DNA from: a bacterium
GTDB lineage: Bacteria > Patescibacteriota > Minisyncoccia > Phycocordibacterales > Phycocordibacteraceae
Reading direction: 5' to 3'
Assembly: GCA_023269085.1 (NCBI GenBank)
Contig: JAHFML010000003.1
Location: 52,863-116,862, forward strand
Length of the DNA stretch: 64,000 nt
Part shown: positions 1,065-59,297 of the stretch, piece after piece
Position numbering within the stretch: the first letter of the stretch is position 1
Layout of the letters: each line of letters opens with the position of its first letter
Program-made: the position numbers and the translations under genes
Notes under the pieces: model-generated
The model's input: the letters and a program-made list of their open reading frames with translations, nothing else
The model's database searches: none
What the model was told of the DNA's origin: nothing

Positions 1065-1164
1065 GAGCCGCGGCCGGCAGAGCCGGCCGCGTGCTTGTTG
1101 ACGCTTCGGGGGCGAGGTGATACATTACTCGTACGCTCTTCGGGGCTTTATTTTTTACTGCTAC

Positions 1165-1832: not shown

Positions 1833-1846
1833 CCCTATAATACTCT

Positions 1847-2377: not shown

Positions 2378-2385
2378 TCATTTAT

Positions 2386-2739: not shown

Positions 2740-2742
2740 TAT

Positions 2743-3327
2743 ATGGCAACCATGACACCAGAAAAAGGAATTGGAGCAGAGGCAACCGCGACACCGATCG
2801 CCGCTACATCGGCACCAACCGCGTCGTCGCGAGGCTCACTCCGTGGCCGCGGGAGCCGGCCGGCTGGCCGTGGTGCTCGCCCGCCGCGCGAGCGCGGAGA
2901 GTTCGACTCGGTCACGATCGACGTCCGTCGCGTGGCGCGCGTTATGGCCGGCGGTCGTCGCTTCAACTTCAGCCTCGTGGTCGTCATCGGCGACAAGAAG
3001 GGTCGGGTCGGCGTCGGCCTTGGCAAGGGTGTCGACACGGCGCTCGCTATCGACAAGGCGACGCGCGACGCGAAGAAGCATCTCTTCACCGTCGCTCGTA
3101 CGCGATCAGGCTCGATCCCGCACGAAGTGATGGCGAAGTACGCCTCATCGACCGTCGAGATTATCCCGTCGGAGGGTCGCGGTCTCGTCGCCGGTACTGC
3201 CGTGCGCACCGTGCTCGATCTCGCCGGTGTCACCGATGTCGTGACCAAGATCCATTCACGTTCGAAGAACAAGCTCACGATCGCCCGCGCGACCATCGAC
3301 GCTTTGAAGCAATTGCGCACCGCCTAG
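2743..3327 (+). CDS. rpsE: 30S ribosomal protein S5
   Basis: VTIDVRRVARVMAGGRRFNFSLVVVIGDKKGRVGVGLGKG... S5 core with an Arg/Gly-rich N-terminal extension. Confidence 0.95.
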   Translation: MATMTPEKGIGAEATATPIAATSAPTASSRGSLRGRGSRPAGRGARPPRERGEFDSVTIDVRRVARVMAGGRRFNFSLVVVIGDKKGRVGVGLGKGVDTALAIDKATRDAKKHLFTVARTRSGSIPHEVMAKYASSTVEIIPSEGRGLVAGTAVRTVLDLAGVTDVVTKIHSRSKNKLTIARATIDALKQLRTA

Positions 3328-3337
3328 CCTCTTTACC

Positions 3338-3790
3338 ATGCAACTCAACACACTAGCTCCGAAGACAAAGAAAGAAAGCCACCCGAAGGTTGGGCGTGGC
3401 GGCAAGCGCGGTAAGACCAGCGGCAAGGGCGGCAAGGGTCAGACCGCGCGCGCCGGGCATCATATCCGCCCGGAGGTACGCGACCGGATCAAGAAACTCC
3501 CCAAGCTCCGCGGCCACGGCAAGAATCGTTCGCGCACCGTCCGCACCAATCGTATCGATGCGGCGGTCGTCAATCTCGCCGCGCTCGAAGCCGCCTTCAA
3601 AGCGGGTGAGGTCGTCTCGCCGGCAGCACTCCTCGCGAAAGGGCTCGTGCGCCGCGCGAAGGGTCGCGCGCCCGAGGTGAAGATCCTCGGCATGGGCACC
3701 TTGACCAAGGCGCTCACGATTCGCGGTTGTGTCCTCTCGGCGACCGCTCTTGCCGCGGTGCTCGCGGTCGGCGGCACCAACAATGATTAA
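3338..3790 (+). CDS. rplO: 50S ribosomal protein L15
   Basis: MQLNTLAPKTKKESHPKVGRGGKRGKTSGKGGKGQ... L15; begins 10 nt after rpsE with no rpmD (L30) in between. Confidence 0.95.
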   Translation: MQLNTLAPKTKKESHPKVGRGGKRGKTSGKGGKGQTARAGHHIRPEVRDRIKKLPKLRGHGKNRSRTVRTNRIDAAVVNLAALEAAFKAGEVVSPAALLAKGLVRRAKGRAPEVKILGMGTLTKALTIRGCVLSATALAAVLAVGGTNND

Positions 3791-5057
3791 TTCTTTTTTG
3801 CATAAGGTGAAGCTGGCGCTCGGCGATGCCGAGATCCGCTTCCGCATCCTCTTCGTCGTCGGCGCACTCGCCATCTTCCGGCTCCTTGCGGCTATTCCCA
3901 TCCCGGGAGTCGACAAGGCGGCGCTCGCGCAATTCTTCGCGAGCAATCAGTTTTTCGGTCTTTTGAATATCTTCTCGGGCGGCGGGCTCGCGCATCTCTC
4001 TATCGTGATGCTCGGCGTCGGCCCTTACATCACCGCTTCTATCGTGATGCAGCTCGCGACGATCGTCTTCCCGCAGGTGAAGGAGGCGTACTTCGAAGAT
4101 GGCGAGGCCGGTCGCGCGAAGTTCATCGAGTGGAGCCGCCTCCTCACGATACCGATCGCGGTCTTGCAGGCTATCGGCTTCCTCTTCTTGCTTCAGAATC
4201 AGCATGTCATCGGTCACTTGAGCACCGTCGCTCTCATCGCGAACATCGCAATCGTCACAGCCGGCTCGCTCCTCCTCATGTGGATCGGTGAGCTCGTGAC
4301 CGAGTTCGGTATTGGCAACGGCGTGTCGCTCATCATCCTCGCGGGTATCCTTGCGAGTGTACCGGCGAGCATCTCGCAGAGCCTCTTCGCCGCCTCGGCC
4401 GCGAACATCCCGGCCTATCTCGGCTTCATCATTCTCGCGGCCGCGATGATCTATGCGGTGGTGGTCGTTTCGGATGCCGAGCGTTCGATACCCATAGCGT
4501 ACGCCCGCGCCGTCCGCGGTGCGGCGATGGCGCAGGGAGCCGCAACGTATCTCCCGATTCGTCTCCTCCAAGCCGGCGTGATACCCATCATCTTTGCGCT
4601 CTCGCTCCTGCTCATCCCGCAGATGGCGCTCTCGATGCTCTCGACTCTGCACGTCTCCTTCGCACAGGGCGCGGCGCTCTGGTACACCGCCTTCCTCTCC
4701 AACCCGTGGCAGTACGGCGCTATCTACTTCGCGCTCGTGGTGCTCTTTACCTACTTCTATACCGCCGTCACCTTCGAGCCGAAGCGCGTCGCCGAGAATC
4801 TCCAGAAGACCGGCGCCTTCGTCCCGGGCGTGCGCCCCGGCCGCGAGACCGAGGAGTATATCAATAACGTGGTCAATCGCGTGACGCTTCCCGGAGCCTG
4901 CTTCCTCGGCCTCCTCGCGGTCTCGCCGTCGATTATCCAAGGGCTCACCGGCGTCACGACGCTCGTCCTTGGCGGCACGGCGCTCCTCATCGCGGTGCAG
5001 GTCATCCTCGACCTCGTGAACAAGATCGACGCCCAAGTCTCGCTTCGAGAATACTAA
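3783..5057 (+). CDS. secY: Preprotein translocase SecY
   Basis: MINSFLHKVKLALGDAEIRFRILFVVGALAIFR...MLGVGPYITASIVMQL...; 10 TM; ATG at 3783. Confidence 0.95.
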   Translation: MINSFLHKVKLALGDAEIRFRILFVVGALAIFRLLAAIPIPGVDKAALAQFFASNQFFGLLNIFSGGGLAHLSIVMLGVGPYITASIVMQLATIVFPQVKEAYFEDGEAGRAKFIEWSRLLTIPIAVLQAIGFLFLLQNQHVIGHLSTVALIANIAIVTAGSLLLMWIGELVTEFGIGNGVSLIILAGILASVPASISQSLFAASAANIPAYLGFIILAAAMIYAVVVVSDAERSIPIAYARAVRGAAMAQGAATYLPIRLLQAGVIPIIFALSLLLIPQMALSMLSTLHVSFAQGAALWYTAFLSNPWQYGAIYFALVVLFTYFYTAVTFEPKRVAENLQKTGAFVPGVRPGRETEEYINNVVNRVTLPGACFLGLLAVSPSIIQGLTGVTTLVLGGTALLIAVQVILDLVNKIDAQVSLREY

Positions 5058-17754: not shown

Positions 17755-17813
17755 CGCCACAGCAGAAAGGGGCTTTCGCCAGTCGGCAGGCTCGGCCGTT
17801 TTCTGCTGTGGCG
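17755..17813 (+). promoter_or_regulatory. Conserved 5' leader stem-loop of DGR-1 target gene (paralogue at 54000..54058)
   Basis: cgccacagcagaaa...tttctgctgtggcg 14-bp stem with an inner hairpin; ~85% identical to the copy upstream of the second DGR target, with compensatory changes in the inner stem. Confidence 0.7.
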
Positions 17814-17887
17814 AACCGAATATGTCGGTGCGTCGTACAGCACGCGACAATATCAGCAATGATAGTCGCACAAAAGGAGATCGCATC

Positions 17888-18604
17888 ATGTTGACCGACT
17901 CTCGCACCATCGCTCAAGCATACGGTCTTGGGCAAAAAGTTTTCTCCGCCGGCGAGGTTGCCGGTATGACGCCAGAGCTTTGGAATGCTCTGGCTCAAGA
18001 CGCGCGATTGTTTGCGCAGCTTCCGGCGATGATCCGCGGCTCTTTGGCGGATGCGTTGGCTGAACAGCGCGAACAGCAACCCAAGTTCTTCACTCACATC
18101 GCGACGACCAACCTTGCCGCGACTGTGGGCAAAAAGACGAGGAAGTGTTTCGTTGGCAGTCGCTATACGTATCGCGACAACGACTTCGACAACTGGCTTC
18201 CCGCCAATCAGCCATCCGCCGATGCCTGCGTTATCACAACGCTTGCTTCTGAGCAGGACTGGACGTTTGCCGAAGCCGCTGCCAAAGTCCTAGGTGTTGG
18301 CGCTGGCACGAACATCATCTTGCTCGGCAAAGCGCTCATCGAGAACGGTCATATCATGACCTTGGCGCAAGCTGAAGAAATGATCGAAGCCAACGAGCAC
18401 GGCGAGAACACCGGTATGCACCGCGATGGTCGGGGCAATTTCTTCTTCGTGGAAACGGAGGACGAAAATAATCCCGTCTCGGTTGGCGGCGTCGGTCGCG
18501 TTGAGCGCGCTTGGGTCGCGTACGTCGGCTGGCTCGTCAGCGGCGATCGCTGGGACGCTGGCGGTCGGCTCCTCGTCCGCAACTTGGACGCTTCGAAACT
18601 CTGA
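17888..18604 (+). CDS. DGR-1 target protein with C-terminal variable region
   Basis: SD AAAGGAGA 7 nt upstream of ATG 17888; C-terminal 36 codons form the VR. Confidence 0.75.
   Translation: MLTDSRTIAQAYGLGQKVFSAGEVAGMTPELWNALAQDARLFAQLPAMIRGSLADALAEQREQQPKFFTHIATTNLAATVGKKTRKCFVGSRYTYRDNDFDNWLPANQPSADACVITTLASEQDWTFAEAAAKVLGVGAGTNIILLGKALIENGHIMTLAQAEEMIEANEHGENTGMHRDGRGNFFFVETEDENNPVSVGGVGRVERAWVAYVGWLVSGDRWDAGGRLLVRNLDASKL
18475..18583 (+). repeat. DGR-1 variable repeat (VR)
   Basis: 109 nt aligning to the TR at 18863..18971; ~20 mismatches, 19 at TR adenines. Confidence 0.9.
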
Positions 18605-18862
18605 CACTTGGTCTCTTTCGAGTGTCCTCTAATTACTCCTCTCACGTATTACGCGTGCGAGGAGTATACTTTTGTCTGAACACGCTGGCATCTTCGGTTC
18701 CCAAACTTGAGGTGGCGAGGTTCCGGGTAAGTTCACCCGAAAAAAGAAATATAAGTTGGTGTGTCGCGCTGGTGGGCTCACGGCCCCGAATAAGATACAG
18801 CTCAGAGAGCATTCGATGGGTGGTAACCTTCGCTGGTGGTAAGGATGGTGCGACACACAAAG

Positions 18863-18971
18863 CGTCTCGGTTGGCAACGTCAATCGCGATGAGCGCGATT
18901 GGAACGCGAACGTCAACCGGCTCGACAACGACAATCGCTGGAACGCTGACAATCGGCTCCTCGTCCGCAAC
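18863..18971 (+). repeat. DGR-1 template repeat (TR)
   Basis: Intergenic; rich in AAC/AAT/GAC codons in the VR frame; all but one difference from the VR are at adenines. Confidence 0.9.
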
Positions 18972-18976
18972 AGATC

Positions 18977-19336
18977 TTACTTTCTCTCGCTTTCTGCGGG
19001 AGTTTTCTTTTCAAGATATGAACGCCATGCGACCAGCATTTTGCTTGCATCAACAAGTAGTCCGCTTATACGTACATGTTGAGCGTTCGTAATCGCATTA
19101 CTCTCCCACCCGACAAGTAGAAGGAATTTCGCCACATCGAGTCGGGCAATTGAGATGTTGAGCGCAGAAATCTTTTGCGCGGACGGAAGATATGCCGCAG
19201 AAAAGGCAGATTCAAGCGTGTCGAGAAGAGCCGTGTCAATTCTCGTACCGATAGTCTGTCGCTTCGTTTTGGCAACGTGAGGGAGTGCTGCTTGCCAAGC
19301 GAGATACGCCTCCTTCAATTTCGATACTACGGGCAC
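18977..19336 (-). CDS. avd: Accessory variability determinant (Avd) homologue, DGR-1
   Basis: 119-aa four-helix-bundle-type protein; resembles Bordetella phage Avd; homologous to the 55141..55509 ORF; GTG start. Confidence 0.7.
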   Translation of the reverse strand: MPVVSKLKEAYLAWQAALPHVAKTKRQTIGTRIDTALLDTLESAFSAAYLPSAQKISALNISIARLDVAKFLLLVGWESNAITNAQHVRISGLLVDASKMLVAWRSYLEKKTPAESERK

Positions 19337-19361
19337 GAGCTTTTCTTGTTGCGGAAACGTC

Positions 19362-19373
19362 GGGGGGGGGGGG
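19362..19373 (+). repeat. Homopolymeric G12 tract in the 50-nt divergent avd/RT intergenic region
   Basis: cgtcGGGGGGGGGGGGtacgttcagaagaATG; lies 14 nt upstream of the RT ATG and 26 nt upstream of the avd start. Confidence 0.95.
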
Positions 19374-19386
19374 TACGTTCAGAAGA

Positions 19387-20409
19387 ATGGATAGAATAAA
19401 TATCACTCATTCCTTCGACAATATCACCTTGGTAGATAATTTGCTCGACGCGTGGAAAGAATTCTTGCGCGGCAAACAGAAGAGGAAAGACGTGCAAGTA
19501 TTCGGATATAATCTAATTGAAAATATAAAAAGCATCCACGCGGACCTCATTTCCGGCATCTACCAGCACGGCCAGTACGAGCACTTCAAAATCAACGACC
19601 CAAAGCCCCGCGACATCCACAAAGCGAGCGTGCGCGACCGGCTCGTGCACCATGCCATTTATCGCATTCTCTACCCATTCTTCGATCGCACTTTTATCAG
19701 CGACTCCTACTCCTGCCGCAATGGGAAGGGGACGCACAAAGCCATGAATCGCTTTAGAGCCTTTGCGCGCAAAGTATCGAAGAATGACACGCGCACTGCT
19801 TGGGTCTTGAAGTGCGACATACGCAAGTTCTTCGCATCGATTGATCAGCCAACGCTCCTCGCCCTCTTGAGAGAACGCATTTCAGACGAACGCACCCTGC
19901 TACTCCTGCAACGAGTTATCGAGAGCTTCTCAAGTACAGCGAGAGGGAAAGGCCTCCCGCTCGGCAATCTCACCTCACAGCTCCTCGTGAACATCTACAT
20001 GAACGAGTCCGATCAATTCGTGAAGCATATACTCAAAGCGAAATACTATATCCGCTATGCCGATGACTTCGTATTCATCTCCCACGATCGCAGAGAACTC
20101 GAGGCGCTTCTGCCTCGTGTCGATGCCTTTTTGCGCGACCGGCTCAAGCTCGAATTGCACCCGAATAAAGTCTCAATCGCCACGCTCGCTTCGGGTATCG
20201 ACTTCTTGGGCTGGGTGCATTTCTCTGACCATCGCGTCTTGCGAGGCGCGACGAAGCGACGGATGTTGCGGAGGATTGAAGAGACGAGCGACAAGCCGGA
20301 GGTGATGAGCTCGTATCTGGGGATGCTAGAGCATGGAAATGGGTACAAGTTGCGAGAAGAGATTATGTATTTGCATACACTCACCGAGGCGCGTACCATG
20401 GTGGCATGA
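19387..20409 (+). CDS. DGR-type reverse transcriptase, DGR-1
   Basis: RT motifs including YADD and the DGR-characteristic LGNLTSQ (motif 4, in place of the group II QGxxxSP); start could alternatively be the upstream in-frame ATG at 19285. Confidence 0.9.
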   Translation: MDRINITHSFDNITLVDNLLDAWKEFLRGKQKRKDVQVFGYNLIENIKSIHADLISGIYQHGQYEHFKINDPKPRDIHKASVRDRLVHHAIYRILYPFFDRTFISDSYSCRNGKGTHKAMNRFRAFARKVSKNDTRTAWVLKCDIRKFFASIDQPTLLALLRERISDERTLLLLQRVIESFSSTARGKGLPLGNLTSQLLVNIYMNESDQFVKHILKAKYYIRYADDFVFISHDRRELEALLPRVDAFLRDRLKLELHPNKVSIATLASGIDFLGWVHFSDHRVLRGATKRRMLRRIEETSDKPEVMSSYLGMLEHGNGYKLREEIMYLHTLTEARTMVA

Positions 20410-26477: not shown

Positions 26478-26492
26478 GAACGAAATCAATTT

Positions 26493-26517
26493 CGGGTGGA
26501 CACTAGGTGTCCACCCG
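26493..26517 (+). repeat. 25-bp inverted-repeat element copy 1 (cgggtggacac-tag-gtgtccacccg)
   Basis: 11-bp perfect arms with a 3-nt spacer; 4 copies in the window. Confidence 0.95.
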
Positions 26518-27175: not shown

Positions 27176-27216
27176 CGCGGGCACGCCAGAGGCGTGCCCG
27201 CGGTTTCTCTTTTTTA
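27176..27216 (+). terminator. Rho-independent terminator
   Basis: cgcgggcacgcc agag gcgtgcccgcg + tttctctttttt. Confidence 0.7.
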
Positions 27217-27228
27217 CTTCTATCCTCG

Positions 27229-27253
27229 TGGGTGGACACTAGGTGTCCACCCA
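27229..27253 (+). repeat. 25-bp inverted-repeat element copy 2
   Basis: tgggtggacactaggtgtccaccca. Confidence 0.95.
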
Positions 27254-31228: not shown

Positions 31229-31279
31229 CTGTGCTCTCAAGATACCATGCCGCCCGCGCGTCGTGCAAGTCGATGAAAA

Positions 31280-31304
31280 CGGGTGGACACTAGGTGTCCA
31301 CCCG
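31280..31304 (+). repeat. 25-bp inverted-repeat element copy 3
   Basis: cgggtggacactaggtgtccacccg. Confidence 0.95.
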
Positions 31305-35326: not shown

Positions 35327-36532
35327 ATGGCAACAGCAGAATTCAATCGTGCGAAGCCGCACATGAACGTGGGCACCATCGGCCACGTTGACCACGGCAA
35401 GACGACCCTCACCGCCGGCATTCTCAATATCCTCTCGAAGCTTACGGCCGAGGGCTATGCCGCTCGCGTCGAAGGCGTCGACAACATCGACAGCGCACCA
35501 GAGGAGAAGGCGCGCGGTATCACTATCGCGCTCCACCACTCTGAGTATGAGTCGCCGAACCGCCACTACGCGCACATCGATGCGCCGGGCCACGCCGACT
35601 ATATCAAGAACATGATCACCGGCGCCGCCCAGATGGACGGAGCGGTTCTCGTGGTCGCCGCGACCGACGGCGTGATGCCGCAGACGCGCGAGCACATCCT
35701 CCTCGCAAAGCAGGTGGGCCTCAAGAAGCTTATCGTCTTCCTCAACAAGGTGGACATGGTGGACGAGCCGGACCTCATCGACCTCGTCGAAGAAGAGATC
35801 CGCGAGCTCCTCACCAAGCAGGGCTACGACGGCGCGAATACGCCGATTATCCGTGGCTCGGGGCTCAAGGCGCTCGAGGCAACTGACGTGAGCGACGAAT
35901 GGGCGCAGAAGGTGAAGACTCTCGTCGACACGATGGACACTTACTTCGATCTCCCTGAGCGCGAAGTCAACAAGCCGTTCCTCATGCCGATCGAGGACAT
36001 CTTCTCGATCGAAGGTCGCGGCACCGTCGTCACGGGTCGCATCGAGCGCGGTATGGTCAAGGTCGGCGAAGAAGTCGAGATCATCGGCATCAAGCCGACG
36101 ATGAAGTCGACCGTCACCGGTATCGAAATGTTCAACAAACAGCTCTCGGAGGGTCAGGCAGGCGACAACGCCGGCATCCTCCTCCGCGGCACCAAGAAGG
36201 AGGATGTGCATCGCGGCCAGGTCCTCGCGAAGACGGGCTCGGTCACGCCGCACACCGACTTCGAGGCCGAGGTCTATGTCCTTGGCAAGGACGAAGGCGG
36301 TCGTCACACGCCGTTCTTCTCGGGCTACAAGCCGCAGTTCTATATCCGCACCACCGACGTGACGGGCGAAGTCACGCTCCCGGAGGGTAAGGAGATGGTC
36401 ATGCCGGGTGACACCGTCACCTTCAAGGTGAAGCTCACCGCACCGGTCGCGCTCGAAGCGCAGCAGCACTTTGCTATTCGCGAAGGCGGCCGCACCGTCG
36501 GCGCCGGCGTCGTGACTAAGATCACGGCATAA
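35327..36532 (+). CDS. tuf: Elongation factor Tu
   Basis: [22 protein letters not shown] GTPase motifs. Confidence 0.98.
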
Positions 36533-36556
36533 GTCATTAGCAGAATCCACACTCAT

Positions 36557-36991
36557 ATGGAACCAACCACGGAAGTAAAACCGAAAGCGACTAAAACTTC
36601 CTCAGGAAGTTCGTCCGACACTTCGCGAAGCGAAGTGTCTAGGAAGCGTGTTTCGAAGAAGGTCGCGGCCGTCGCTCCGGTAGTCGAGCACAAGCTCCGG
36701 ATCCGGGTTCGCGCCTATGAGCACAAGATTCTCGATCTCTCGGTGAAGCAGATCATGGACACAGCGGCGCGTTTCGACGCGGTGATCGTGGGCCCTGTCC
36801 CGCTCCCGACCGAGATCAAGCGTTGGACAGTGAACCGCTCGACCTTCGTCCACAAGGACGCGCGCGAGCAGTTCGAGATGCGCATCCATAAGCGCCTCAT
36901 CGACATCCGGAACCCGTCGCCGAAGGTGATCGAGGCCCTCACGAACCTCAATCTCCCCTCCGGTGTGACGATTGATGTGAAGATGGTGTAG
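36557..36991 (+). CDS. rpsJ: 30S ribosomal protein S10 with ~42-aa Lys/Ser-rich N-terminal extension
   Basis: ...HKLRIRVRAYEHKILDLSVKQIMDTAARFDAVIVGPVPLPTEIKRWTVNRSTFVHKDAREQFEMRIHKRLIDI. Confidence 0.9.
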   Translation: MEPTTEVKPKATKTSSGSSSDTSRSEVSRKRVSKKVAAVAPVVEHKLRIRVRAYEHKILDLSVKQIMDTAARFDAVIVGPVPLPTEIKRWTVNRSTFVHKDAREQFEMRIHKRLIDIRNPSPKVIEALTNLNLPSGVTIDVKMV

Positions 36992-37004
36992 ACGCCAAGA
37001 AAAA

Positions 37005-37045
37005 AGCACGCGGGCGCCCCAGAGGGGCGCCCGCGTGCTTTTTTG
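37005..37045 (+). terminator. Strong rho-independent terminator directly after rpsJ
   Basis: agcacgcgggcgcccc agag gggcgcccgcgtgct + tttttg. Confidence 0.85.
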
Positions 37046-37093
37046 CTCCAACTGTGGTATCAGAAGAGAGGATTCACAACCAAGGAGACAGAG

Positions 37094-37552
37094 ATGTCAC
37101 AGACACCAGAACTTCGTATCATCTATTACGACACAGGCCTCCCGCGGGAGATTTCTAGTGAAATCCGCAGGAAGAATGCGGCAACTTGGGAAGAAACGAC
37201 TCTTCGAGGCGTCTTCCATTCGATTACGGTGAAGGGTGCCGTCGTTTCGGCAAAAATCGTCTTTCGCTGTTTTGTCGAGACCAAAAGCGCGACGACAAGG
37301 AAGCCGTCCGGTTTTTTCGCAAGATTCATGAAGCGAGAAAGTGATTCTGCCACAGAAGTCATCGAGGTGGTCGATCGGTGGAGTTGTGTCGGCGAAGATC
37401 TAGTGGGCATCGATTTCTGCGGTGAGTACAAACGTTTTTTGCTCGATACCATGAAGCGGAAAGGTATTGCGGTATTGGATACGACAATCAGTACCGTCTT
37501 CGACCCCATCCACGCACGGCTCTTCTATGAGTTGCGGAAGAAAAAGAAGTAA
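37094..37552 (+). CDS. Hypothetical protein (152 aa) inserted between rpsJ and rplC
   Basis: SD AAGGAGA 5 nt upstream of ATG; own terminators on both sides; lower GC; no recognisable domain. Confidence 0.55.
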   Translation: MSQTPELRIIYYDTGLPREISSEIRRKNAATWEETTLRGVFHSITVKGAVVSAKIVFRCFVETKSATTRKPSGFFARFMKRESDSATEVIEVVDRWSCVGEDLVGIDFCGEYKRFLLDTMKRKGIAVLDTTISTVFDPIHARLFYELRKKKK

Positions 37553-37560
37553 CCCCTCTC

Positions 37561-37582
37561 ACGGCCCGCTCGCGCGGGCCGT
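37561..37582 (+). terminator. Terminator-like hairpin after the inserted gene
   Basis: ggcccgctcgcgcgggcc followed by gttgttct. Confidence 0.45.
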
Positions 37583-37597
37583 TGTTCTGCCCGGGAT

Positions 37598-37626
37598 TTG
37601 CAAATTTTGCCTACCTCGTGTAGAGT
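37598..37626 (+). promoter_or_regulatory. Candidate sigma-70-type promoter for rplC-rplD-rplW-rplB
   Basis: TTGCAA -17 nt- TAGAGT. Confidence 0.35.
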
Positions 37627-37665
37627 GCTTGAAACGCTACGTACCTCGCCTTGAGGGACCTCCAG

Positions 37666-37700
37666 CAAATCGCGCCACGCGATTGCTGTGGCGCGATTTG
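37666..37700 (+). promoter_or_regulatory. 13-bp-stem leader hairpin immediately upstream of rplC (possible autoregulatory/attenuator element)
   Basis: caaatcgcgccac gcgattgct gtggcgcgatttg. Confidence 0.45.
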
Positions 37701-37711
37701 CTTTGACCCAC

Positions 37712-38347
37712 ATGAAATTCATCCTCGCCACCAAAGAGAACATGACCCGCGTCTTCGCGGAGGATGGTCGCGCCTATGCGGGCACTATCCTCTCGGTCGC
37801 GCCGATGACGGTCACGCAGGTGAAGACGGCTGAAGGGAAGGACGGCTACGCGGCGGTACAGGTGGGCACCGGCGAACGCAAGACGAAGAACATCAGCAAG
37901 GCGGTCTTGGGCCACACGGGTGGCAAGGGCTATGAGGCTATCCGCGAATTCCGCCTGCCTACCGGTCAGGCAGGTGATGGCGACGTAGCCGAGGTGGGCG
38001 CGACGCTCGATGCCTCAGTCTTCGCGAAGGGCGATATGGTCGAGGTCTCGGGTCTCACCAAGGGCAAGGGCTTTGCCGGCGTGGTGAAGCGCCACGGCTT
38101 CCACGGTGGCCCGCGCTCGCACGGTCAGAAGCACACCGAGCGCTCGCCGGGCTCTATCGGCGGCTCAGGCGGGCGCGCCGGTGGGCGCGTCGTGAAGGGG
38201 AAGAAGATGGCGGGCCGCATGGGTACCGATCGGGTGACGGTCGCCAATCTCAAGGTCCTCGCGGTCGACGCAAAAGCAGGGATGATAGTCATCTCGGGCG
38301 CCGTGCCGGGTCGTCGCGGCACACTCCTCGAAGTCGTGTCCGCATAA
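37712..38347 (+). CDS. rplC: 50S ribosomal protein L3
   Basis: MKFILATKENMTRVFAEDGRAYAGTILSVAP... Confidence 0.95.
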   Translation: MKFILATKENMTRVFAEDGRAYAGTILSVAPMTVTQVKTAEGKDGYAAVQVGTGERKTKNISKAVLGHTGGKGYEAIREFRLPTGQAGDGDVAEVGATLDASVFAKGDMVEVSGLTKGKGFAGVVKRHGFHGGPRSHGQKHTERSPGSIGGSGGRAGGRVVKGKKMAGRMGTDRVTVANLKVLAVDAKAGMIVISGAVPGRRGTLLEVVSA

Positions 38348-38357
38348 TTTCAATACT

Positions 38358-39080
38358 ATGACTACTGCAAAAGACATGAAAGAGATAAAGACGGTCGCGC
38401 CGACGACATTCGAACTCCCTGTCTATTCGATGGAAGGGAAGAAAGTCTCGACGGCCATACTCCCGGAAGCGATTTTCAATGCACCGTGGAAGACTGATCT
38501 CGTGCACCAGGTGACCACCGCGATGCAGGCCAACCTGCGCCAGAACCGCGCCCACACCAAGGACCGCGCCGAGGTCTCGGGCGGTGGCCGTAAGCCGTGG
38601 AAGCAGAAGGGCACCGGCCAAGCGCGCCATAGCTCGACCCGTTCGCCGATATGGCGTCACGGCGGCGTGACCTTCGGCCCGCGCAATGAGCGCGACTACA
38701 GCGAGAAGATCAACAAGAAGATGCGCATGGGCGCGCTCCTCTCGGTGCTCTCTCACAAGGCGAAGGACGGTGAAATTATCTTGGTTGACTCATTCGGCTT
38801 CACGGCACCGAAGACCGCACTCGCGAAGACGGCGCTCGGGAAGCTTGCTGTCGGTGCCGGTGCAGAAGCTTTGGTGACGAAGAAGAAGAACGCCGCGCTC
38901 CTCGCACTCGCCGCGTACGACGAGAACACGATCAAGAGCTTCGCCAACTTCGGCAATCTCACGACCGAGGAGGCGCGCAATCTGAACCCGCTCTCGATCA
39001 TGTCCTGCAAGTATCTCATTATCGAGAAGCCGGTTGAGACGTTTGCCGCTCTCGCGACGCGCCTCGGCAAAAATACATAA
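38358..39080 (+). CDS. rplD: 50S ribosomal protein L4
   Basis: L4 family; ...RAEVSGGGRKPWKQKGTGQARHSSTRSPIWRHGG. Confidence 0.95.
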   Translation: MTTAKDMKEIKTVAPTTFELPVYSMEGKKVSTAILPEAIFNAPWKTDLVHQVTTAMQANLRQNRAHTKDRAEVSGGGRKPWKQKGTGQARHSSTRSPIWRHGGVTFGPRNERDYSEKINKKMRMGALLSVLSHKAKDGEIILVDSFGFTAPKTALAKTALGKLAVGAGAEALVTKKKNAALLALAAYDENTIKSFANFGNLTTEEARNLNPLSIMSCKYLIIEKPVETFAALATRLGKNT

Positions 39081-39086
39081 TTATAT

Positions 39087-39452
39087 ATGGCAATCTTCGG
39101 CGACAAAAAGAAAGAAAAGAAGGAGGTTACGAGCGTGGTACGTCACGCGCACGCGGTCAACGCGACCCACGGGAGCGCGCACGACATCATCCGCGCGCCG
39201 TGGTTCTCTGAGAAGGCGCTCCTCGGCACCGACAAGGGCGTGTATGTCTTCGCCGTCGCCCCGCGCGCAACCTCGGCACAGGTCGCGGGCGCCATCCGCG
39301 AGATCTACAAGGTGACGCCGAAGTCGGTCCACCTCGCGAACTTGCCGGGCAAGAAGAAGGCGATGCGCTCGCGCCACGGCATGGGGCAACGCGCCGCACG
39401 GAGCAAGGCCTATGTCTATTTGAACGCGGGCGACAGCATCCAGTTTGCCTAA
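39087..39452 (+). CDS. rplW: 50S ribosomal protein L23
   Basis: HDIIRAPWFSEKALLGTDKGVYVFAVAPRATSAQVAGAIREIYKV. Confidence 0.93.
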   Translation: MAIFGDKKKEKKEVTSVVRHAHAVNATHGSAHDIIRAPWFSEKALLGTDKGVYVFAVAPRATSAQVAGAIREIYKVTPKSVHLANLPGKKKAMRSRHGMGQRAARSKAYVYLNAGDSIQFA

Positions 39453-39472
39453 AGCCTAGCGCCTAATTATCT

Positions 39473-40321
39473 ATGAAAACCTACAGCCCAACCACCAAGA
39501 GCCGCCGATCGATGACCACCTTGCCCTACAAGGAGCTCCTCTCGGGCGACGCGCCCTACAAGCCGCTTCTCGCCGCTAAGAAGCGTCAGGGCGGTCGCAA
39601 CGCCTTCGGCCGGATAACGACGCGTCATCAAGGTGGCGGGCACAAGCGCCGTTTGCGCGAGATCGACTTCTCCTTCAACAAGAAGAACATTCCCGCCAAG
39701 ATCGAGACGGTCGAGTATGATCCCTTCCGCTCGGCCTTCATCGGCCTCGCGCTCTATCGCGATGGCGAGCGTCGCTATGTCGTCCTGCCGAAGAGCGTCG
39801 GCGTCGGAGCGACTTTCGTCGTCGCCGAGGACGCGCCGCTCACGCCGGGCAACCGTCTTCCGATAGGGAAGATCCCGGTGGGCACCTCGATTTATAATAT
39901 TGAAATCGCTCCGGGCACAGGCGCCGCGCTCGTCCGTTCGGCGGGCACCTTCGCCGAGGTGGTCGCGCACGACGCGGGCTATGCGCAGATCAAGCTCCCC
40001 TCGACCGAGATCCGCCGCGTCTCGGATCTCGCATGGGCCAGCATCGGCGCGGTCGGCAACGAAGAGTACAATCTCGTCGTCATTGGCAAGGCCGGTCGCT
40101 CGCGTTGGCTCGGCATCCGCCCGACAGTGCGCGGCACCGCGATGAACCCGGTTGACCACCCGCACGGCGGCGGTGAAGGGCGTCAGGGCCGCGGGCTTCG
40201 TCGCGCCAAGACCAAGTGGGGTAAGCCGAGTGGCAAGGGCCAGAAGACGCGCACGCCGAAGAAATACTCAAACGTCTTCATCGTCTCGCGCCGCAAGGTC
40301 GGCAAGAAGCGCAAGGGCTAA
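39473..40321 (+). CDS. rplB: 50S ribosomal protein L2
   Basis: GRNAFGRITTRHQGGGHKRRLREIDF...VRGTAMNPVDHPHGGGEG. Confidence 0.97.
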   Translation: MKTYSPTTKSRRSMTTLPYKELLSGDAPYKPLLAAKKRQGGRNAFGRITTRHQGGGHKRRLREIDFSFNKKNIPAKIETVEYDPFRSAFIGLALYRDGERRYVVLPKSVGVGATFVVAEDAPLTPGNRLPIGKIPVGTSIYNIEIAPGTGAALVRSAGTFAEVVAHDAGYAQIKLPSTEIRRVSDLAWASIGAVGNEEYNLVVIGKAGRSRWLGIRPTVRGTAMNPVDHPHGGGEGRQGRGLRRAKTKWGKPSGKGQKTRTPKKYSNVFIVSRRKVGKKRKG

Positions 40322-40334
40322 TTTCACAAAAACA

Positions 40335-40370
40335 GAAAGCACGCGGCGCCTCCGGCGCCGCGTGCTTTCT
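40335..40370 (+). terminator. Rho-independent terminator after rplB (the cluster ends here; no rpsS follows)
   Basis: gaaagcacgcggcgcc tcc ggcgccgcgtgctttc. Confidence 0.75.
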
Positions 40371-40406
40371 CATCGCCTATCCCCACCCCACCCCTTTACC
40401 TCCCCC

Positions 40407-40419
40407 TCGGGGGGGGGGG
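40407..40419 (+). repeat. Homopolymeric G13 tract 40 nt upstream of the surface-protein gene
   Basis: cctcGGGGGGGGGGGGGtacgctacag; flanks closely resemble the G12 tract region of DGR-1 (cgtcG12tacgttcag). Confidence 0.95.
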
Positions 40420-40459
40420 GGTACGCTACAGGTATATCCACCGCGCATAACCCATACCC

Positions 40460-41374
40460 ATGAAAGAACTAACTCGTTCAACGCTCGTCGCCATCGTCGC
40501 CTCATCGCTCTCCCTCCTCGCCTTCTACGCGGTGAGCGCTGGCGCACAATCAGCCTGGACTCCAGCTCCAGCTAACGCTCCCTCAGGCAACGTGGCAGGC
40601 CCCCTCACCACGGGCGCAACCGGTCAGAGCAAAGCCGGTAACCTCATGCTCAACACCGACGGCACCCTCGCCAACGGCCTCATCGTCGCGAATGGGAATG
40701 TGGGTATTGGGACGGTGGCGCCATACTTGCCACTCGTCGTTTATAGTTCGTCAGCCAATGGTTCTGCTGTAGCGCTTGACAGACCGGCTGGCTTGGCTGG
40801 GATGTATCAGGTAAGAACAAACGGATCTCCTCGATGGGTTTTTGGTGCAGACCAAACAACAGAGAGTGGCTCGAATTCCGGATCAAACTTTCGAATTATC
40901 GGGTATAATGATGACGGTCTTGGATTAAATAACGCATTAACAATAAATAGATCCTCCGGCAACGTCGGTATTGGAACGACGAATCCGAACGTCTCGAAGG
41001 GGGCTGGCGGGTATGTCGACGCCAAAGACGTCTATCTCCGTGACGCCGGGAAGTGGGCGAGTGAGGTTGGTGGGAGTGGGAGTATCGTAGCAGGATGCGC
41101 AAAAAATAGGAGAGCAGTTGATTTTTGCGGAAGAGTTAACAACAACCCAGCAGGACTAATCGCTGATGTTTGTTGGGGAGGCGCATCATTTACTACTATT
41201 GAAATAGGCACCCTCGGAGCGGATTGGGGAGCGAGTACCGTTTATACGACAAAGACATTTTCTTGCCCGAGCGGATCCACTGTTCGACTCGTTGGGACTA
41301 TGGGCGAAGGCTGTGGGAGTAACTCATATTCGTCGTCTAGCGTATCACTGGATACCTTTTTCTGTATCAAATAA
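40460..41374 (+). CDS. Secreted Gly/Asn-rich repeat protein (fibre/surface-protein-like)
   Basis: Signal peptide (LVAIVASSLSLLAFYAVSAGAQS); repeated NGNVGIGT / SGNVGIGTTNP motifs; C-terminal Cys-rich region. Confidence 0.6.
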   Translation: MKELTRSTLVAIVASSLSLLAFYAVSAGAQSAWTPAPANAPSGNVAGPLTTGATGQSKAGNLMLNTDGTLANGLIVANGNVGIGTVAPYLPLVVYSSSANGSAVALDRPAGLAGMYQVRTNGSPRWVFGADQTTESGSNSGSNFRIIGYNDDGLGLNNALTINRSSGNVGIGTTNPNVSKGAGGYVDAKDVYLRDAGKWASEVGGSGSIVAGCAKNRRAVDFCGRVNNNPAGLIADVCWGGASFTTIEIGTLGADWGASTVYTTKTFSCPSGSTVRLVGTMGEGCGSNSYSSSSVSLDTFFCIK

Positions 41375-41520
41375 CCTGCTCGATACTCGCGAAAAGCGCG
41401 TGCCGCATTTGTTCATTTCAACCCATCAAGATGTTCTCCGCACGTTCTCTCACAATGAGAAAATTGTTTTGCACACCTTGGTGCTGAAGGTTTGAGTGGG
41501 CATAGCGTATACTAAATCAA

Positions 41521-42267
41521 ATGGCCTCGCTCTCTTCGATACCAACATCATTCGTTCCGCATCAGGCGGCGGTTGAGCGCCGTCAATTCAGCAGCGACTT
41601 CTCAAGCGCGTTCTCCTTCTTCGCCTACCTCGTGCTCCTCATCGTCTTCGCGCTCGCTCTCGGCGTATTCTTTTACGGCCGCATCTTATCCTCGACACAA
41701 GCGTCCAGGGAGGCTGAACTTACCAAAGCCGAAGCGGCTATCGACCAGGCGACCGTGGACGATTTCGTGCACTTGCGCGATCGCCTCAATTCCTCGCAGT
41801 CTTTATTGGGGAAGCATGTCGCGTTATCGAACGTGTTCTCGACGCTTCAGACCATCCTTCCTTCAAGCGTGCGCCTCTCGTCTCTGCACATAGCGCTCGA
41901 TGATACTGGTGCAGTCAAGATAGAGGGGAGCGGTTTCGCGAAGAGCTTCAATTCACTCGCCTTCGCATCGGAAGTGTTCTCTGCGGACAGCAGTATCAAA
42001 GAGGTCATATTCTCCAGGATAGGCGTCACAAAAGATTCGACGATCGCGTTCAATCTCGCGGCGTCTATCGACCCAAAGCTGATTGCTTATTCGCCGAGCA
42101 CGAGCGTGCCGGATCTCTCTGGCATGTCGAGCGTTCCGAGCATGCCGGCGTTGTCACTGCCAACCGTAGCGACTTCGAGCATTATGGCGACATCAAGCGC
42201 TCCCGCCAAGGTCGCGTCATCGTCTAAGCCGACAAGCAAGCCGGCCGCTAAGTCTCGCGTACCATGA
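41521..42267 (+). CDS. PilN-like type IV pilus assembly protein
   Basis: Single N-terminal TM then periplasmic domain; Ser/Pro-rich C-terminal tail. Confidence 0.45.
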   Translation: MASLSSIPTSFVPHQAAVERRQFSSDFSSAFSFFAYLVLLIVFALALGVFFYGRILSSTQASREAELTKAEAAIDQATVDDFVHLRDRLNSSQSLLGKHVALSNVFSTLQTILPSSVRLSSLHIALDDTGAVKIEGSGFAKSFNSLAFASEVFSADSSIKEVIFSRIGVTKDSTIAFNLAASIDPKLIAYSPSTSVPDLSGMSSVPSMPALSLPTVATSSIMATSSAPAKVASSSKPTSKPAAKSRVP

Positions 42268-51913: not shown

Positions 51914-53956
<2,043 letters not shown>

Positions 53957-53999: not shown

Positions 54000-54058
54000 C
54001 GCCACAGCAGAAAGGGGCTTCCGCCAACCGGCGGACTAGGCCGTTTTCTGCTGTGGCG
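54000..54058 (+). promoter_or_regulatory. Conserved 5' leader stem-loop of DGR-2 target gene
   Basis: cgccacagcagaaa...tttctgctgtggcg; paralogue of 17755..17813. Confidence 0.7.
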
Positions 54059-54120
54059 AACCGAATAGGTACGCTTGAACAGCACTGTAAAAACGCTCTT
54101 CCCAAGCCAAGGAGAAAGTC

Positions 54121-54714
54121 ATGAGCGCACAACAGAAGCAAATCACGAAACTAGTGGCCGCTCTGGTCGAGTTTTCTGACCAGTTCGGCCAGATGTCGAC
54201 CGAGGATTGCCAATGGGCAATCCAAAACACGAAAGCGGCAATCGGCCTCTTCGTAGAGGCGGTGAGGAATCGCCCGATAGCAGCTCTGGTCGGGTTGCCA
54301 GAAGGCACGGTCATCCGTCGCGTGAAGGTCGACCGCTCGCATTCTCCGCAGAAAATGGTGAACGCGACCGGCCGTAGGCAGTACATCGACAAGGACATCC
54401 TCGCGACGATGCCTTTGGGCGAAGGCGACGAGGTGGATGTGTACTTCGTACCGACCAAGCGCTTCGTTTTGGCAAGTGAGGTCTCGGCGTTTCTCGCGCA
54501 GTATGGTCTCGTTCCCGACCCGCGCGCGCAAACGGCGGTGAACGAAGCCGATCCGACCTTCGCCGACGACCATCCGAACGGAACGCAATGGAGCGATTTT
54601 TGCTACCTGACGTTCTACCGCTGGTATGACGAGCGGGACGTGTACTGCAACCGCGACGACCGCGTCTGGCGCGGCTATTGGTTCCTCTCGGGTGTCCCGA
54701 CTCCCCGCAAGTAA
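54121..54714 (+). CDS. DGR-2 target protein with C-terminal variable region
   Basis: SD AAGGAGA 5 nt upstream; VR occupies the last ~36 codons (…CYLTFYRWYDERDVYCNRDDRVWRGYWFLSGVPTPRK). Confidence 0.75.
   Translation: MSAQQKQITKLVAALVEFSDQFGQMSTEDCQWAIQNTKAAIGLFVEAVRNRPIAALVGLPEGTVIRRVKVDRSHSPQKMVNATGRRQYIDKDILATMPLGEGDEVDVYFVPTKRFVLASEVSAFLAQYGLVPDPRAQTAVNEADPTFADDHPNGTQWSDFCYLTFYRWYDERDVYCNRDDRVWRGYWFLSGVPTPRK
54601..54707 (+). repeat. DGR-2 variable repeat (VR)
   Basis: 107 nt aligning to 55025..55131; ~14 mismatches, all at TR adenines. Confidence 0.9.
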
Positions 54715-54763
54715 GTCCTCGGGTCTTTGAGTATAAGAACTCTTTAGACCCTTAACCCTTTGT

Positions 54764-54792
54764 GCGCCGCTTTCCCAAGCGGCGCATTTTGT
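54764..54792 (+). terminator. Rho-independent terminator after DGR-2 target
   Basis: gcgccgc tttcccaa gcggcgc + attttgt. Confidence 0.7.
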
Positions 54793-55024
54793 ATATGATG
54801 CAAATGGTAGTAGGCGAATACGGAAGCGATTACGGTTTCTTCCTGCCGAATCCAGTATCCGTACGTTGAGAACGTGTGCGATTACGGTTGCATATGGAGG
54901 ATGTACGCAGAAACTTCAAAAAATGAAGATACTTGGTGTGAAGTGCTGGCGCATTACCGATGCCGAATACGATTCAACCTTGAGAATACTCGATGGGTGG
55001 TGGCACAGATGGCGCTCCATACAT

Positions 55025-55131
55025 TGCTACCTGACGTTCAACCGCTGGAATGACGAGCGGAACGTGAACTGCAACCGCAACGACAACGACTGGAACGACA
55101 ATTGGTTCCTCTCGGGTGTCCCGACTCCCCG
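55025..55131 (+). repeat. DGR-2 template repeat (TR)
   Basis: AAC-rich in VR frame (…NRWNDERNVNCNRNDNDWNDNWF…); intergenic. Confidence 0.9.
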
Positions 55132-55140
55132 TAACTCTCT

Positions 55141-55509
55141 TCATTTCTCGCCCGAACCTCTATGTTCGGGCGAGTTTTGTTTAACGAGCTGCCCATTCCA
55201 TCCACCAAGCATTCTCCCGACCTCCTCAAGTGGCATCGAGAGAGCGATGTATTTCTTCGTATCGAGCGATTTGGTCTCCCAGAGGATGAGTAAGAATATT
55301 TTTAGCGTATCGAGTTTACGAATAGCGAGACGCACCCACGGCTGTTTCTCAGTTTTTGAGAGAAAGCTTGCACTTGCGACTGCTTCAATCAACGCAACGA
55401 ATTCCGCGTCAACTGTTCCACCGAGCGTGTGCCGATGGGTCTTCGGTATGGTTTGATAAAATCCATACCATATAATATACGCATGCTTAATACGCTCGAG
55501 CACCGGCAA
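55141..55509 (-). CDS. avd: Avd homologue, DGR-2
   Basis: 122 aa; ...LSMPLEEVGRMLGGWNGQLVKQ resembles the Avd C-terminus; TTG start. Confidence 0.7.
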   Translation of the reverse strand: MPVLERIKHAYIIWYGFYQTIPKTHRHTLGGTVDAEFVALIEAVASASFLSKTEKQPWVRLAIRKLDTLKIFLLILWETKSLDTKKYIALSMPLEEVGRMLGGWNGQLVKQNSPEHRGSGEK

Positions 55510-55516
55510 GAGCCTC

Positions 55517-55526
55517 GGGGGGGGGG
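55517..55526 (+). repeat. Homopolymeric G10 tract between divergent avd-2 and RT-2
   Basis: agcctcGGGGGGGGGGagcttcgaag; 8 nt upstream of avd-2 start. Confidence 0.95.
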
Positions 55527-55606
55527 AGCTTCGAAGAATCGAATTCGTTCATACCTATGAGCATATCATCTCGATCGAGAACCTTCTCGACGCGTGGCGA
55601 GAATTC

Positions 55607-56542
55607 GTGAGAGGGAAGAAGAAGCGTGCGGATGTGCAAGAGTTCGAGAGAGACTTGATGCAAAATGTCATATCGTTGCATCGTTATCTCGTGTCTGGCG
55701 CGTACCAGCACGGCCAGTACGAGCGCTTCAAAATCAACGACCCCAAGCCTCGCGACATCCACAAAGCGAGCGTGCGCGATCGGCTCGTGCACCATGCCAT
55801 CTATCGCATTCTATATCCATTCTTCGACCGCACTTTCATCAGCGACTCCTATTCCTGCCGCAATGGGAAGGGAACGCACAGAGCCATGAATCGCTTTAGA
55901 GCCTTTGCGCGCAAAGTATCGAAGAATGACACGCGCACTGCTTGGGTCTTGAAGTGCGACATACGCAAGTTCTTCGCCTCGATTGATCAGTCAACGCTCC
56001 TCGTCATCTTGAAGAGACGCATAACAGACGAACGCACGCTGACACTTCTGCAACGAGTTATCGAGAGCTTCCGCACACCCTGTGCAACACCTGGTGTTGC
56101 ACAAAAAGGCCTCCCGCTTGGCAACCTTACCTCACAACTCCTCGTGAACATCTACATGAACGAGTTCGATCAATTCGTGAAGCACGCGCTCAAAGCAAGA
56201 TACTATCTCCGCTATGCCGATGACTTCGTATTCATCTCTCACGACCGCAGAGAGCTCGAGGCGCTTCTGCCTCGGGTCGATGCCTTTTTGCGCGACCGGC
56301 TCAAGCTCGAACTGCATCCAGACAAAGTCTCAATCGCCACGCTCGCTTCGGGTATCGACTTCTTGGGCTGGGTGCATTTCTCTGACCATCGCGTTGTGCG
56401 AGGCGCGACGAAGCGGCGGATGTTGCGGAGGATTGAAGAGATGGGTGGCAAGCCAGAGGTGGTGAGCTCGTATCTGGGGATGCTCTCGCACGGGAACGCG
56501 TACCGGCTTGTTGCTCATATTTCAGAACAGAAGGAAAAGTGA
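55607..56542 (+). CDS. DGR-type reverse transcriptase, DGR-2
   Basis: ~85% identical to RT-1; YADD and LGNLTSQ motifs; no ATG equivalent to RT-1 Met1 (ATG->ATC), so the true N-terminus is unclear. Confidence 0.85.
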   Translation: MRGKKKRADVQEFERDLMQNVISLHRYLVSGAYQHGQYERFKINDPKPRDIHKASVRDRLVHHAIYRILYPFFDRTFISDSYSCRNGKGTHRAMNRFRAFARKVSKNDTRTAWVLKCDIRKFFASIDQSTLLVILKRRITDERTLTLLQRVIESFRTPCATPGVAQKGLPLGNLTSQLLVNIYMNEFDQFVKHALKARYYLRYADDFVFISHDRRELEALLPRVDAFLRDRLKLELHPDKVSIATLASGIDFLGWVHFSDHRVVRGATKRRMLRRIEEMGGKPEVVSSYLGMLSHGNAYRLVAHISEQKEK

Positions 56543-59007: not shown

Positions 59008-59297
59008 GCGGGGTAGAGGAGAGGTACCTCGGGAGGCTTGAGTTATTCGGGCGTGCGCGCGAGCAATTGCGCGTAAGATCATCTGTCAAATTCGGCGAAC
59101 CCCTCTCGCGAAAACGAAAGGCAACACCGAGCCAAGCTTTGCGAATAATCGCAAGGAAGGTGTAGAGACTAGACGGCAGACATCCTGAGCGTAGTCGAAG
59201 GATGAAGGCATAGTCCAGACCACAAACGAAAGGCAATGAAAATTGTAGTGGTAAGCATAACCTCCAGACCCTGGTTCGATTCCAGGCCCCGCAACAA
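59008..59297 (+). ncRNA. ssrA: Candidate tmRNA-like RNA (tRNA-like T-arm plus acceptor-like 3' end); identity uncertain
   Basis: 3' end ...CCTGG-TTCGATT-CCAGG-CCCCGCA-A mimics T-arm plus acceptor strand; complementary GCGGGG ~285 nt upstream; 410-nt ORF-free interval; followed by a strong terminator; tag ORF not confidently identified. Confidence 0.4.

Follow-up and report, generated by a model that had tools for sequence, protein, structure and literature searches.

In Neisseria meningitidis porA (poly-G) and opc (poly-C) and in Bordetella pertussis fim (poly-C), a homopolymer lies in the core promoter, where its length, which varies between close strains, sets the distance from the -35 element or from the activator site to the -10 element, and hence the expression of the surface protein. 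The vlp genes of Mycoplasma hyorhinis, a small-genome, host-attached bacterium, each carry a poly-A run in the promoter spacer, and the members switch independently; the 5' non-coding region, the signal peptide and the N-terminus are conserved among them, and the C-termini diverge. Most runs of the type found in Campylobacter, Helicobacter and Bifidobacterium breve are inside coding regions and act by frameshift. The poly-G/C contingency loci of Campylobacter and Helicobacter are reported to be hypermutable runs that control surface structures by replication slippage (PMC8355987, PMC2823697), and a pilus of B. breve is reported to be switched by a G-tract (PMC9187656). These G/C runs measure about 8-13 nt, and the run studied here resembles them in this respect.

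The Patescibacteria (CPR) are bacteria of tiny size, most of them uncultivated, with a life attached to host cells. The attachment is attributed to their surface fibres, pili and proteins diversified by DGRs. The canonical DGR order is that of Bordetella phage BPP-1, mtd-avd-TR-brt, and we know of no characterised DGR in which a repeat such as the one reported below has been described. In the searchable literature, with its incomplete coverage and without Paul et al. 2017 on CPR DGRs, we found no account of poly-G runs at DGRs or of homopolymer phase variation in Patescibacteria.

Here we analysed a 64-kb window, by which we mean the whole stretch of DNA under study, with a G13 run upstream of a gene for a fibre-like protein. 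It is, in our judgement, somewhat probable that this run is a length-variable promoter spacer and would act as a slippage-driven contingency switch of the fibre gene. Like porA, opc and fim, the locus has a G/C homopolymer in the predicted core promoter of a surface-protein gene; unlike them, it belongs to uncultivated Patescibacteria, its run abuts a -10-like hexamer of the TAnnnT type, and the transcripts at the related DGR sites are apparently leaderless. With vlp it shares a conserved putative promoter, signal peptide and N-terminus, a promoter homopolymer and a variable C-terminus, whereas the fibre family has poly-G rather than poly-A, no lipobox cysteine, swapped C-terminal domains rather than tandem repeats, and members that are not all clustered. 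The fibre family would thus be Vlp-like in its working without being a member of the Vlp family: by analogy, its gene-family logic appears closest to M. hyorhinis vlp, and its mechanism would be of the classical porA/opc and fim type. In contrast to the Campylobacter, Helicobacter and B. breve loci, the G13 run is non-coding, with an in-frame stop between the run and the ATG.

Results

A G13 run upstream of a fibre-like gene

The run occupies 40409-40421 of the + strand; the sequence-only reading had its length right and placed it 2 nt too early, at 40407..40419. It is flanked as ...cctttacctccccctc-G13-tacgctacagg, and up to the start codon of the fibre gene, 38 nt from the run, the locus reads ...cctatccccaccccacccctttacctccccctc-G13-tacgctacaggtatatccaccgcgcataacccataccc-ATG (Table 1). 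Only three runs of more than six G's occur in the window, namely G12 (19362-19373), this G13 and G10 (55517-55526), while runs of 4, 5 and 6 number 116, 15 and 3, respectively, and none of 7-9 is present; the longest C run in the window is 5. A run of at least 13 G's would be expected 0.005 times in the window and was observed once, so that the homopolymer is well above chance. All three long runs have their G's on the + strand, which is the sense strand of the downstream gene, and stand at gene 5' ends, the G10 and G12 preceding the two DGR reverse transcriptase (RT) genes. As had been noted from the sequence, the flanks of G13 match those of the DGR-1 site, ...ggaaacgtc-G12-tacgttcagaag, sharing 'tc', the G run, 'tacg', 't' and 'cag' with one 1-nt indel. 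Look-alike flanks were found at gene 5' ends only, and no scattered, non-regulatory sites with similar flanks turned up.

Table 1. Features of the fibre-gene promoter region and of the two DGR sites, in window coordinates
Feature	Position	Strand	Remarks
Hairpin, 17-bp stem	40334..40370	+	after rplB; dG -24.6 kcal/mol, z = -8.8
C-rich block (+), canonical G4 motif (-)	40381..40406	-	overlaps the -35-like hexamer; sister promoters without the motif
-35-like hexamer TTTACC	40395..40400	+	putative; CTTTACC invariant in 4/4 family promoters, sequence just 5' diverges
Promoter spacer, 21 bp	40401..40421	+	tccccctc + G13 (40409-40421)
-10-like hexamer TACGCT (TAnnnT type)	40422..40427	+	putative; abuts the G run; TAC(G/T)CT in 4/4 family promoters
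Discriminator, transcription start and leader	40428..40459	+	predicted from the -10 position; start at about 40434, C/A-rich leader of ~26 nt without SD
Fibre-like protein gene	40460..41374	+	304 aa; secreted or anchored; N-terminal ~85 aa family-conserved, remainder variable
DGR-1 G12 and TACGTT hexamer	19362..19379	+	7 nt before the RT ATG (19387); between divergent avd (18977-19336, -) and RT
DGR-2 G10	55517..55526	+	between divergent avd (55141-55509, -) and RT body (to 56542)

An in-frame TAA (40448-40450), four codons before the ATG of the 40460-41374 ORF, separates the run from the start codon; the run is therefore non-coding, and a coding-frame switch at G13 is ruled out. An SD-like role of the run was also rejected, since the run-to-start spacing is typically 13 nt and here 38 nt, and the genome hardly uses SD motifs. 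The fibre gene indeed has no SD, as the sequence-only reading had stressed, but this does not set it apart, as SD motifs precede only 2 of the 69 long ORFs in the window. TATAAT or TATACT often stands 6-7 nt before the ATG in the window (examples at 1847, 14345, 41521, 44950, 51932 and 58354), a pattern that suggests that leaderless mRNAs may be widespread and normal in this organism.

The fibre gene is preceded by tuf, rpsJ, an unknown ORF, rplC, rplD, rplW and rplB, which ends at 40321, and is followed by a type IV pilus cluster comprising a PilO-like gene, PilB, a response regulator, PilT, PilC, pilins and a prepilin peptidase. The ribosomal-protein cluster is split in the window. One block, rpsN-rpsH-rplF-rplR-rpsE-rplO-secY (714-5057), is preceded by a HepT-like toxin gene, and the second, tuf-rpsJ-rplC-rplD-rplW-rplB (35327-40321), has no rpsS after rplB; the unknown ORF, of 152-169 aa (about 37095-37552), is inserted after a terminator between rpsJ and rplC. 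For the hairpin after rplB we propose a role as terminator or insulator; on the + strand it has no clean T-run. It belongs to a family of strong hairpins with a common stem base, AAAGCACGCGG...CCGCGTGCTTT, and different upper stems and loops, found at 40336-40368, at 37003-37041 (after rpsJ) and at about 905-955 of the relative's contig L083, 5' of a sister gene. The differences between the upper stems look like compensatory changes.

Two further features of the window are recorded here. The palindrome GGGTGGACAC(TA/CT)AGTGTCCACCC occurs four times (26478-26517, 27214-27253, 31265-31304 and 52236-52275) and resembles REP or terminator elements. At 59009-59293 (+), an apparent tRNA gene is interrupted by a group I intron (Rfam RF00028, 56 bits, 59030-59235); in this gene the 5' GCGGGGT pairs with the 3' CCCCGCA adjoining the GGTTCGATTCC T-arm; an ARAGORN search of the whole window for tRNAs gave no hit.

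The fibre-like protein family

The description of the downstream gene as encoding a signal-peptide, fibre-like protein proved correct: its product has an N-terminal signal or anchor helix and two GNVGIGT motifs. No Pfam family was found for the 304-aa protein, and the AlphaFold model, with a mean pLDDT of 58 and a confident N-terminal helix, made a fold search not feasible. The protein has no paralogues inside the window; at least five paralogues are encoded on one 148,724-bp contig, where P0002, P0005, P0006 and P0008 reside, and the relatives P0003 and P0007 are on another genome. The first ~85 residues are common to all members in the family alignment and some have a 'GYVDAKDVYLRDAGKWASEVGG' neck, while the middle and C-terminal parts differ; the signal peptides end in ...AFYA(V/I)(S/N)A(G/S/Q)AQSAW, with no lipobox cysteine. 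Between the window and L083, which carries P0005, the coding DNA is 93% identical over the first 255 nt and unrelated beyond. With its conserved 5' part and swapped C-terminal domains, the family would thus have the build of a surface contingency family.

Within the coding sequence of P0005 (L083 1371-1378), a G8 run encodes GGGG of the neck, where the gene in the window has GGTGGGAGTGGGAGT; this coding G8 could be a second, frame-shifting switch.

A metagenome scan with the 304-aa protein gave two distant matches only. The distant homologue P0020, which was present in 10 samples, has no G run at its gene, and the G-run design is therefore lineage-specific. The ten P0020 loci (L090-L099) encode an identical protein and show a 6-nt indel about 30 nt past the stop codon (ggaacctatgg versus ggaacctaaacctatgg), and in one of them, L094, a 30-nt hairpin segment upstream of the gene is missing.

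A common predicted promoter layout in the fibre family

We compared the promoter in the window with those of three relatives with DNA, L083 (P0005), L084/L085 (P0008) and L089 (P0004). All four have TTTACC, 7-8 nt, a G run and TAC(G/T)CT in this order. The window reads TTTACC-tccccctc-G13-TACGCT, with a spacer of 21 bp; L083 reads TTTACC-tccccctc-G10-TACGCT (18 bp), L084/L085 TTTACC-aacccatc-G11-c-TACTCT (20 bp), and L089 TTTACC-tcccctc-GGGAGGGGGG-TACGCT (17 bp). In the last of these, an A interrupts the run, and the spacing is the optimal 17 bp; the interrupted run would thus offer optimal spacing in a form unable to slip easily. The leader regions of the family promoters contain a conserved ACCCAYACCC-ATGAAAGA, and from the hairpin to the ATG 96 of 100 aligned positions are identical between the window and L083, in which the runs are G13 and G10, respectively.

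These results bear out, in outline, the claim that the run belongs to the control region of a gene for a secreted, fibre-like protein, a region that we take to be a candidate promoter. We infer the promoter function of the two hexamers from their conservation: they flank the run in four of four family promoters, but a scan with the E. coli consensus found no promoter in 40200-41700, and of the 6 bases of TACGCT only 3 agree with TATAAT. For mycobacteria, leaderless transcription from promoters of the TAnnnT type is established, and in bacteria with promoters of this leaderless type the -35 element is often weak and spacing may matter less. At a related locus, L072, the layout is TTGCCA-N18-TATAAT, which scored 11/12; here a G10 fills the spacer, and the ATG of a signal-peptide protein follows 6 nt on. 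A second site in L072 has G10-TGATAT-N6-ATG 5' of an Avd gene.

Variation in run length

An independent ENA assembly, L086, agreed with the window over 6,023 nt with no mismatch and a single gap, G11 versus G12 at DGR-1. On the ENA contig ERZ27297709, the intergenic region between rplB and the fibre gene measures 137 nt rather than the 138 nt of the window, all other gene spacings being identical, and G12 instead of G13 is therefore implied. The runs of L065, L071, L079 and L058 are G8, G11, G11 and G10, respectively, between 200-nt flanks that are 96-99.5% identical. L084 and L085, which come from two sequencing runs, both have G11. At runs of G11-G13, differences of one base could come from noise of Illumina sequencing or of the assembler. 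As a whole, run length appears to change faster than the flanks, that is, to be polymorphic among close relatives. The proposal of a phase-variable tract thus holds in so far as length differs between near-identical sequences; change within a population is what we infer from these differences.

G runs at DGR loci

The two DGRs in the window (18475-20409 and 54600-56542) have RT, Avd and TR/VR pairs, as canonical DGRs do. Unlike in BPP-1, avd, which is bAvd-like, is on the strand opposite to RT and divergent from it, and a G run of hypermutable type lies in the ~50-bp gap. Only two TR/VR pairs occur in the window, 18863/18475 and 55024/54600, and in both DGRs the TR ends no more than 6 nt from the avd stop codon. 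Among all pairs in the window none involves 40460-41374; the fibre gene is not a DGR target. A 71-nt element (17755-17825 and 54000-54070, 90% identical), which contains the hairpin CGCCACAGCAGAAA...TTTCTGCTGTGGCG, stands just 5' of both DGR target genes.

We collected 80 RT relatives from species-representative genomes, all of them Patescibacteria, 74 with at least 100 nt of upstream DNA. By the closest of these RT relatives, the organism of the window would be a member of the Patescibacteria of the Kaiserbacteria/Paceibacteria kind. The gap between avd and RT contains a run of at least G5 in 67 of these 74 loci and G8-G14 in 60, with a mode of 9-10 and a range of 5-14. Another simple repeat, (GT)n, (GGCT)n or (GGCGGCT)n, occupies the same spot in 6 of the 74, and one locus has a scaffold gap there. 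A G run or other simple repeat fills the gap in about 90% of the 74 loci, and selection at the site seems to favour a simple repeat of some kind over any one specific sequence. Genomes that are AT-rich (33-38% GC) retain G8-G11 at the site. In one relative of the RT from IMG/VR, a decayed GGTGG is all that stands there.

We compared the bases next to the run in 69 loci. Directly before it, 44 have a C; after it, the first two bases are T in 49 and A in 35, and five positions on there is a T in 35. In 27 of the 69, TAnnnT comes immediately after the run, compared with 0-4 loci at each other offset, and in 17 of these 27 the first ATG comes exactly 7 nt past TAnnnT; an in-frame start is at +13 in 22 of the 69. 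This post-run geometry fits, at many DGR loci, a leaderless promoter, and the run would therefore lie upstream of the transcript at these sites and would have to act at the DNA level. The TACGCT that follows G13 is identical to the hexamer of two DGR loci, L037 and L057. The start of avd is 7-25 nt from the run on the opposite strand, and the -35-like positions of the DGR loci overlap avd coding sequence on the other strand, by which their conservation is confounded.

No in-frame canonical start was found within 25 nt past the run in 22 of the 69 RT loci, including DGR-2. Besides DGR-2 (55484-55610), these start-less loci include L004, L005, L006-L008, L010, L023 and others. A coding-frame switch, or a non-canonical start, is possible in this subgroup: in L005, L029 and L040 translation from an upstream start would pass in frame across the run, which is read as poly-Gly, and the upstream ATG of DGR-2 (55484) would be in frame with RT at G9 or G12, not at the present G10. 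On the opposite strand, however, this DGR-2 ATG corresponds to a conserved avd His codon, and its counterparts in L004 and L010 are out of frame.

Alternative explanations

A fixed, non-switching element is the main rival to the length-variable spacer. The G-rich spacer abutting the -10 would then set promoter strength, DNA rigidity or the response to supercoiling, or would be the site of a lineage-specific regulator or sigma factor common to the RT genes of DGRs and the fibre genes, and the length differences would reflect drift or assembly noise. We consider this unlikely. The C-G(n)-TA boundary and the G-on-sense orientation are conserved at all sites, and the orientation speaks for a fixed element, as do the equal lengths in the two samples L084 and L085 and the interrupted G-rich spacer of L089. 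However, the unrelated simple repeats of six DGR loci argue against sequence-specific recognition, runs between flanks of 96-100% identity differ in length by as much as 3 nt, and the AT-rich genomes keep their G8-G11 runs. If a fixed element were at work, the co-regulation with the DGRs would be real.

Action at the RNA level would require that the run is transcribed, either because transcription continues from rplB or because it starts upstream of the run, and that the run works through 5'-leader structure, an RNA G-quadruplex or transcriptional slippage. The lack of a clean T-run makes read-through past the rplB hairpin possible, and the run is 38 nt from the ATG. This explanation is nevertheless quite improbable, since TAnnnT-N7-ATG at the DGR sites places the run 5' of the transcript, the ~38 nt between hairpin and run leave no room for a plausible upstream promoter, and the C-rich block and G13 fold no better than shuffles (z about 0), with no Rfam match. 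Indeed, folding of the C-rich block back on G13 was rejected for either strand, and Rfam gave no family near the site at the gathering threshold and only chance-level hairpin matches at E <= 1.

The sequence-only reading had also pointed to a minus-strand motif, GGGGG-N7-GGGG-N1-GGGG-N1-GGGG, as part of the switch. The motif is real: it is canonical, with four runs of at least 3 and loops of at most 7, and shares bases with the -35-like hexamer. Neither strand of the 64 kb has another canonical G4 motif; block shuffles give 5.2 +/- 2.2. A minus-strand G-quadruplex at 40381-40406, or an i-motif on the + strand, might thus be a regulatory element. Its role in the switch was not borne out, however, as the motif is missing from all three sister promoters (L083, L084 and L089), the region varying among the four promoters, and from the DGR-1 and DGR-2 sites; the sisters keep both hexamers and the G run without it. 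We rejected the G-quadruplex as a functional element, and its involvement would be very improbable.

The G13 site might instead be what is left of a third DGR whose avd-RT junction the fibre gene has captured. The TACGCT shared with L037 and L057 would agree with such an origin, but a nhmmer profile of 67 RT 5' regions, which recovered DGR-1 (E = 6e-9) and DGR-2 (E = 2e-12), did not match the G13 site at E <= 100, no avd-like sequence lies upstream, and no TR/VR pair is present; this reading is largely refuted and has a slighter chance still. The site was likewise rejected as part of a DGR, as the gene has no TR/VR and the homology to avd-RT junctions does not extend beyond the run.

A sequencing or assembly artefact, from two-colour poly-G tails or a chimeric join at the rplB/fibre junction, is hardly credible: related contigs do end in poly-C or N gaps at the avd-RT run (L035, L038 and L077), and the ribosomal-protein cluster is broken after rplB, but the gene order from rplB to the fibre gene is identical on three contigs, unique sequence borders the runs at either end in dozens of independent assemblies, among them the older RIFCS and GW2011 genomes, which presumably come from four-colour sequencing chemistry, and L089 has its interrupted G-rich spacer at the homologous place. 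A chimera at this junction is further rejected by the recurrence of the hairpin-promoter layout at the sister gene. The avd-RT runs themselves evidently break or corrupt short-read assemblies. The first 49 nt of L035 are C49, the first 52 nt of L038 are C52, and L077 has an N gap and C41 (728-791) exactly at the run.

Discussion

The proposed switch of the fibre gene would work as follows. TTTACC and TACGCT would form a weak sigma-70-type promoter with G13 as its variable spacer, driving a single gene of a family that codes for secreted, fibre-like proteins; the family members appear to have promoter, signal peptide and N-terminal module in common and to differ in their C-terminal domains. Slipped-strand mispairing at replication would add or remove G's, and the altered distance between -35 and -10 would turn the gene up or down stochastically. 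The spacer of 21 bp present here is predicted to be weak or off, and one of 17-18 bp on. The same C-G(n)-TAnnnT design would stand 5' of both RT genes in the window and of most related RT genes in Patescibacteria DGRs, where it would usually be followed by 7 nt and a leaderless ATG. Neither the G4 motif, nor the missing SD, nor homology to a 'DGR switch' would be what makes the switch work.

Some observations speak against a switch. The G's are always on the sense strand, an orientation that a pure spacer-length model does not require; most states in the fibre family (20-21 bp) would be 'off'; and the 22 of 69 start-less RT loci leave part of the DGR set unexplained. Co-regulation of the fibre protein with the DGRs, which had been suggested from the shared flanks, was not upheld: the sites have their promoter design in common, yet each run would mutate independently.

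A broader proposal, possible and to us somewhat doubtful, is that Patescibacteria have a lineage-wide set of phase-variable genes marked by a G run abutting TAnnnT, often leaderless, of which the DGRs would be the most consistent client. The repeat would then gate hypermutation, as a form of bet-hedging, and would pick which fibre member is expressed.

In practical terms, the runs break or distort assemblies and gene calls at DGR loci, so that contigs end in poly-C, N gaps arise and RT start codons are missing. The fibre gene itself would be a classical contingency switch in a new phylum, and the wider pattern of repeats at RT promoters is the more interesting lead. If these readings are true, surface variation in the style of Mycoplasma or Neisseria would take place in Patescibacteria, and DGR mutagenesis would itself be gated by a hypermutable repeat.
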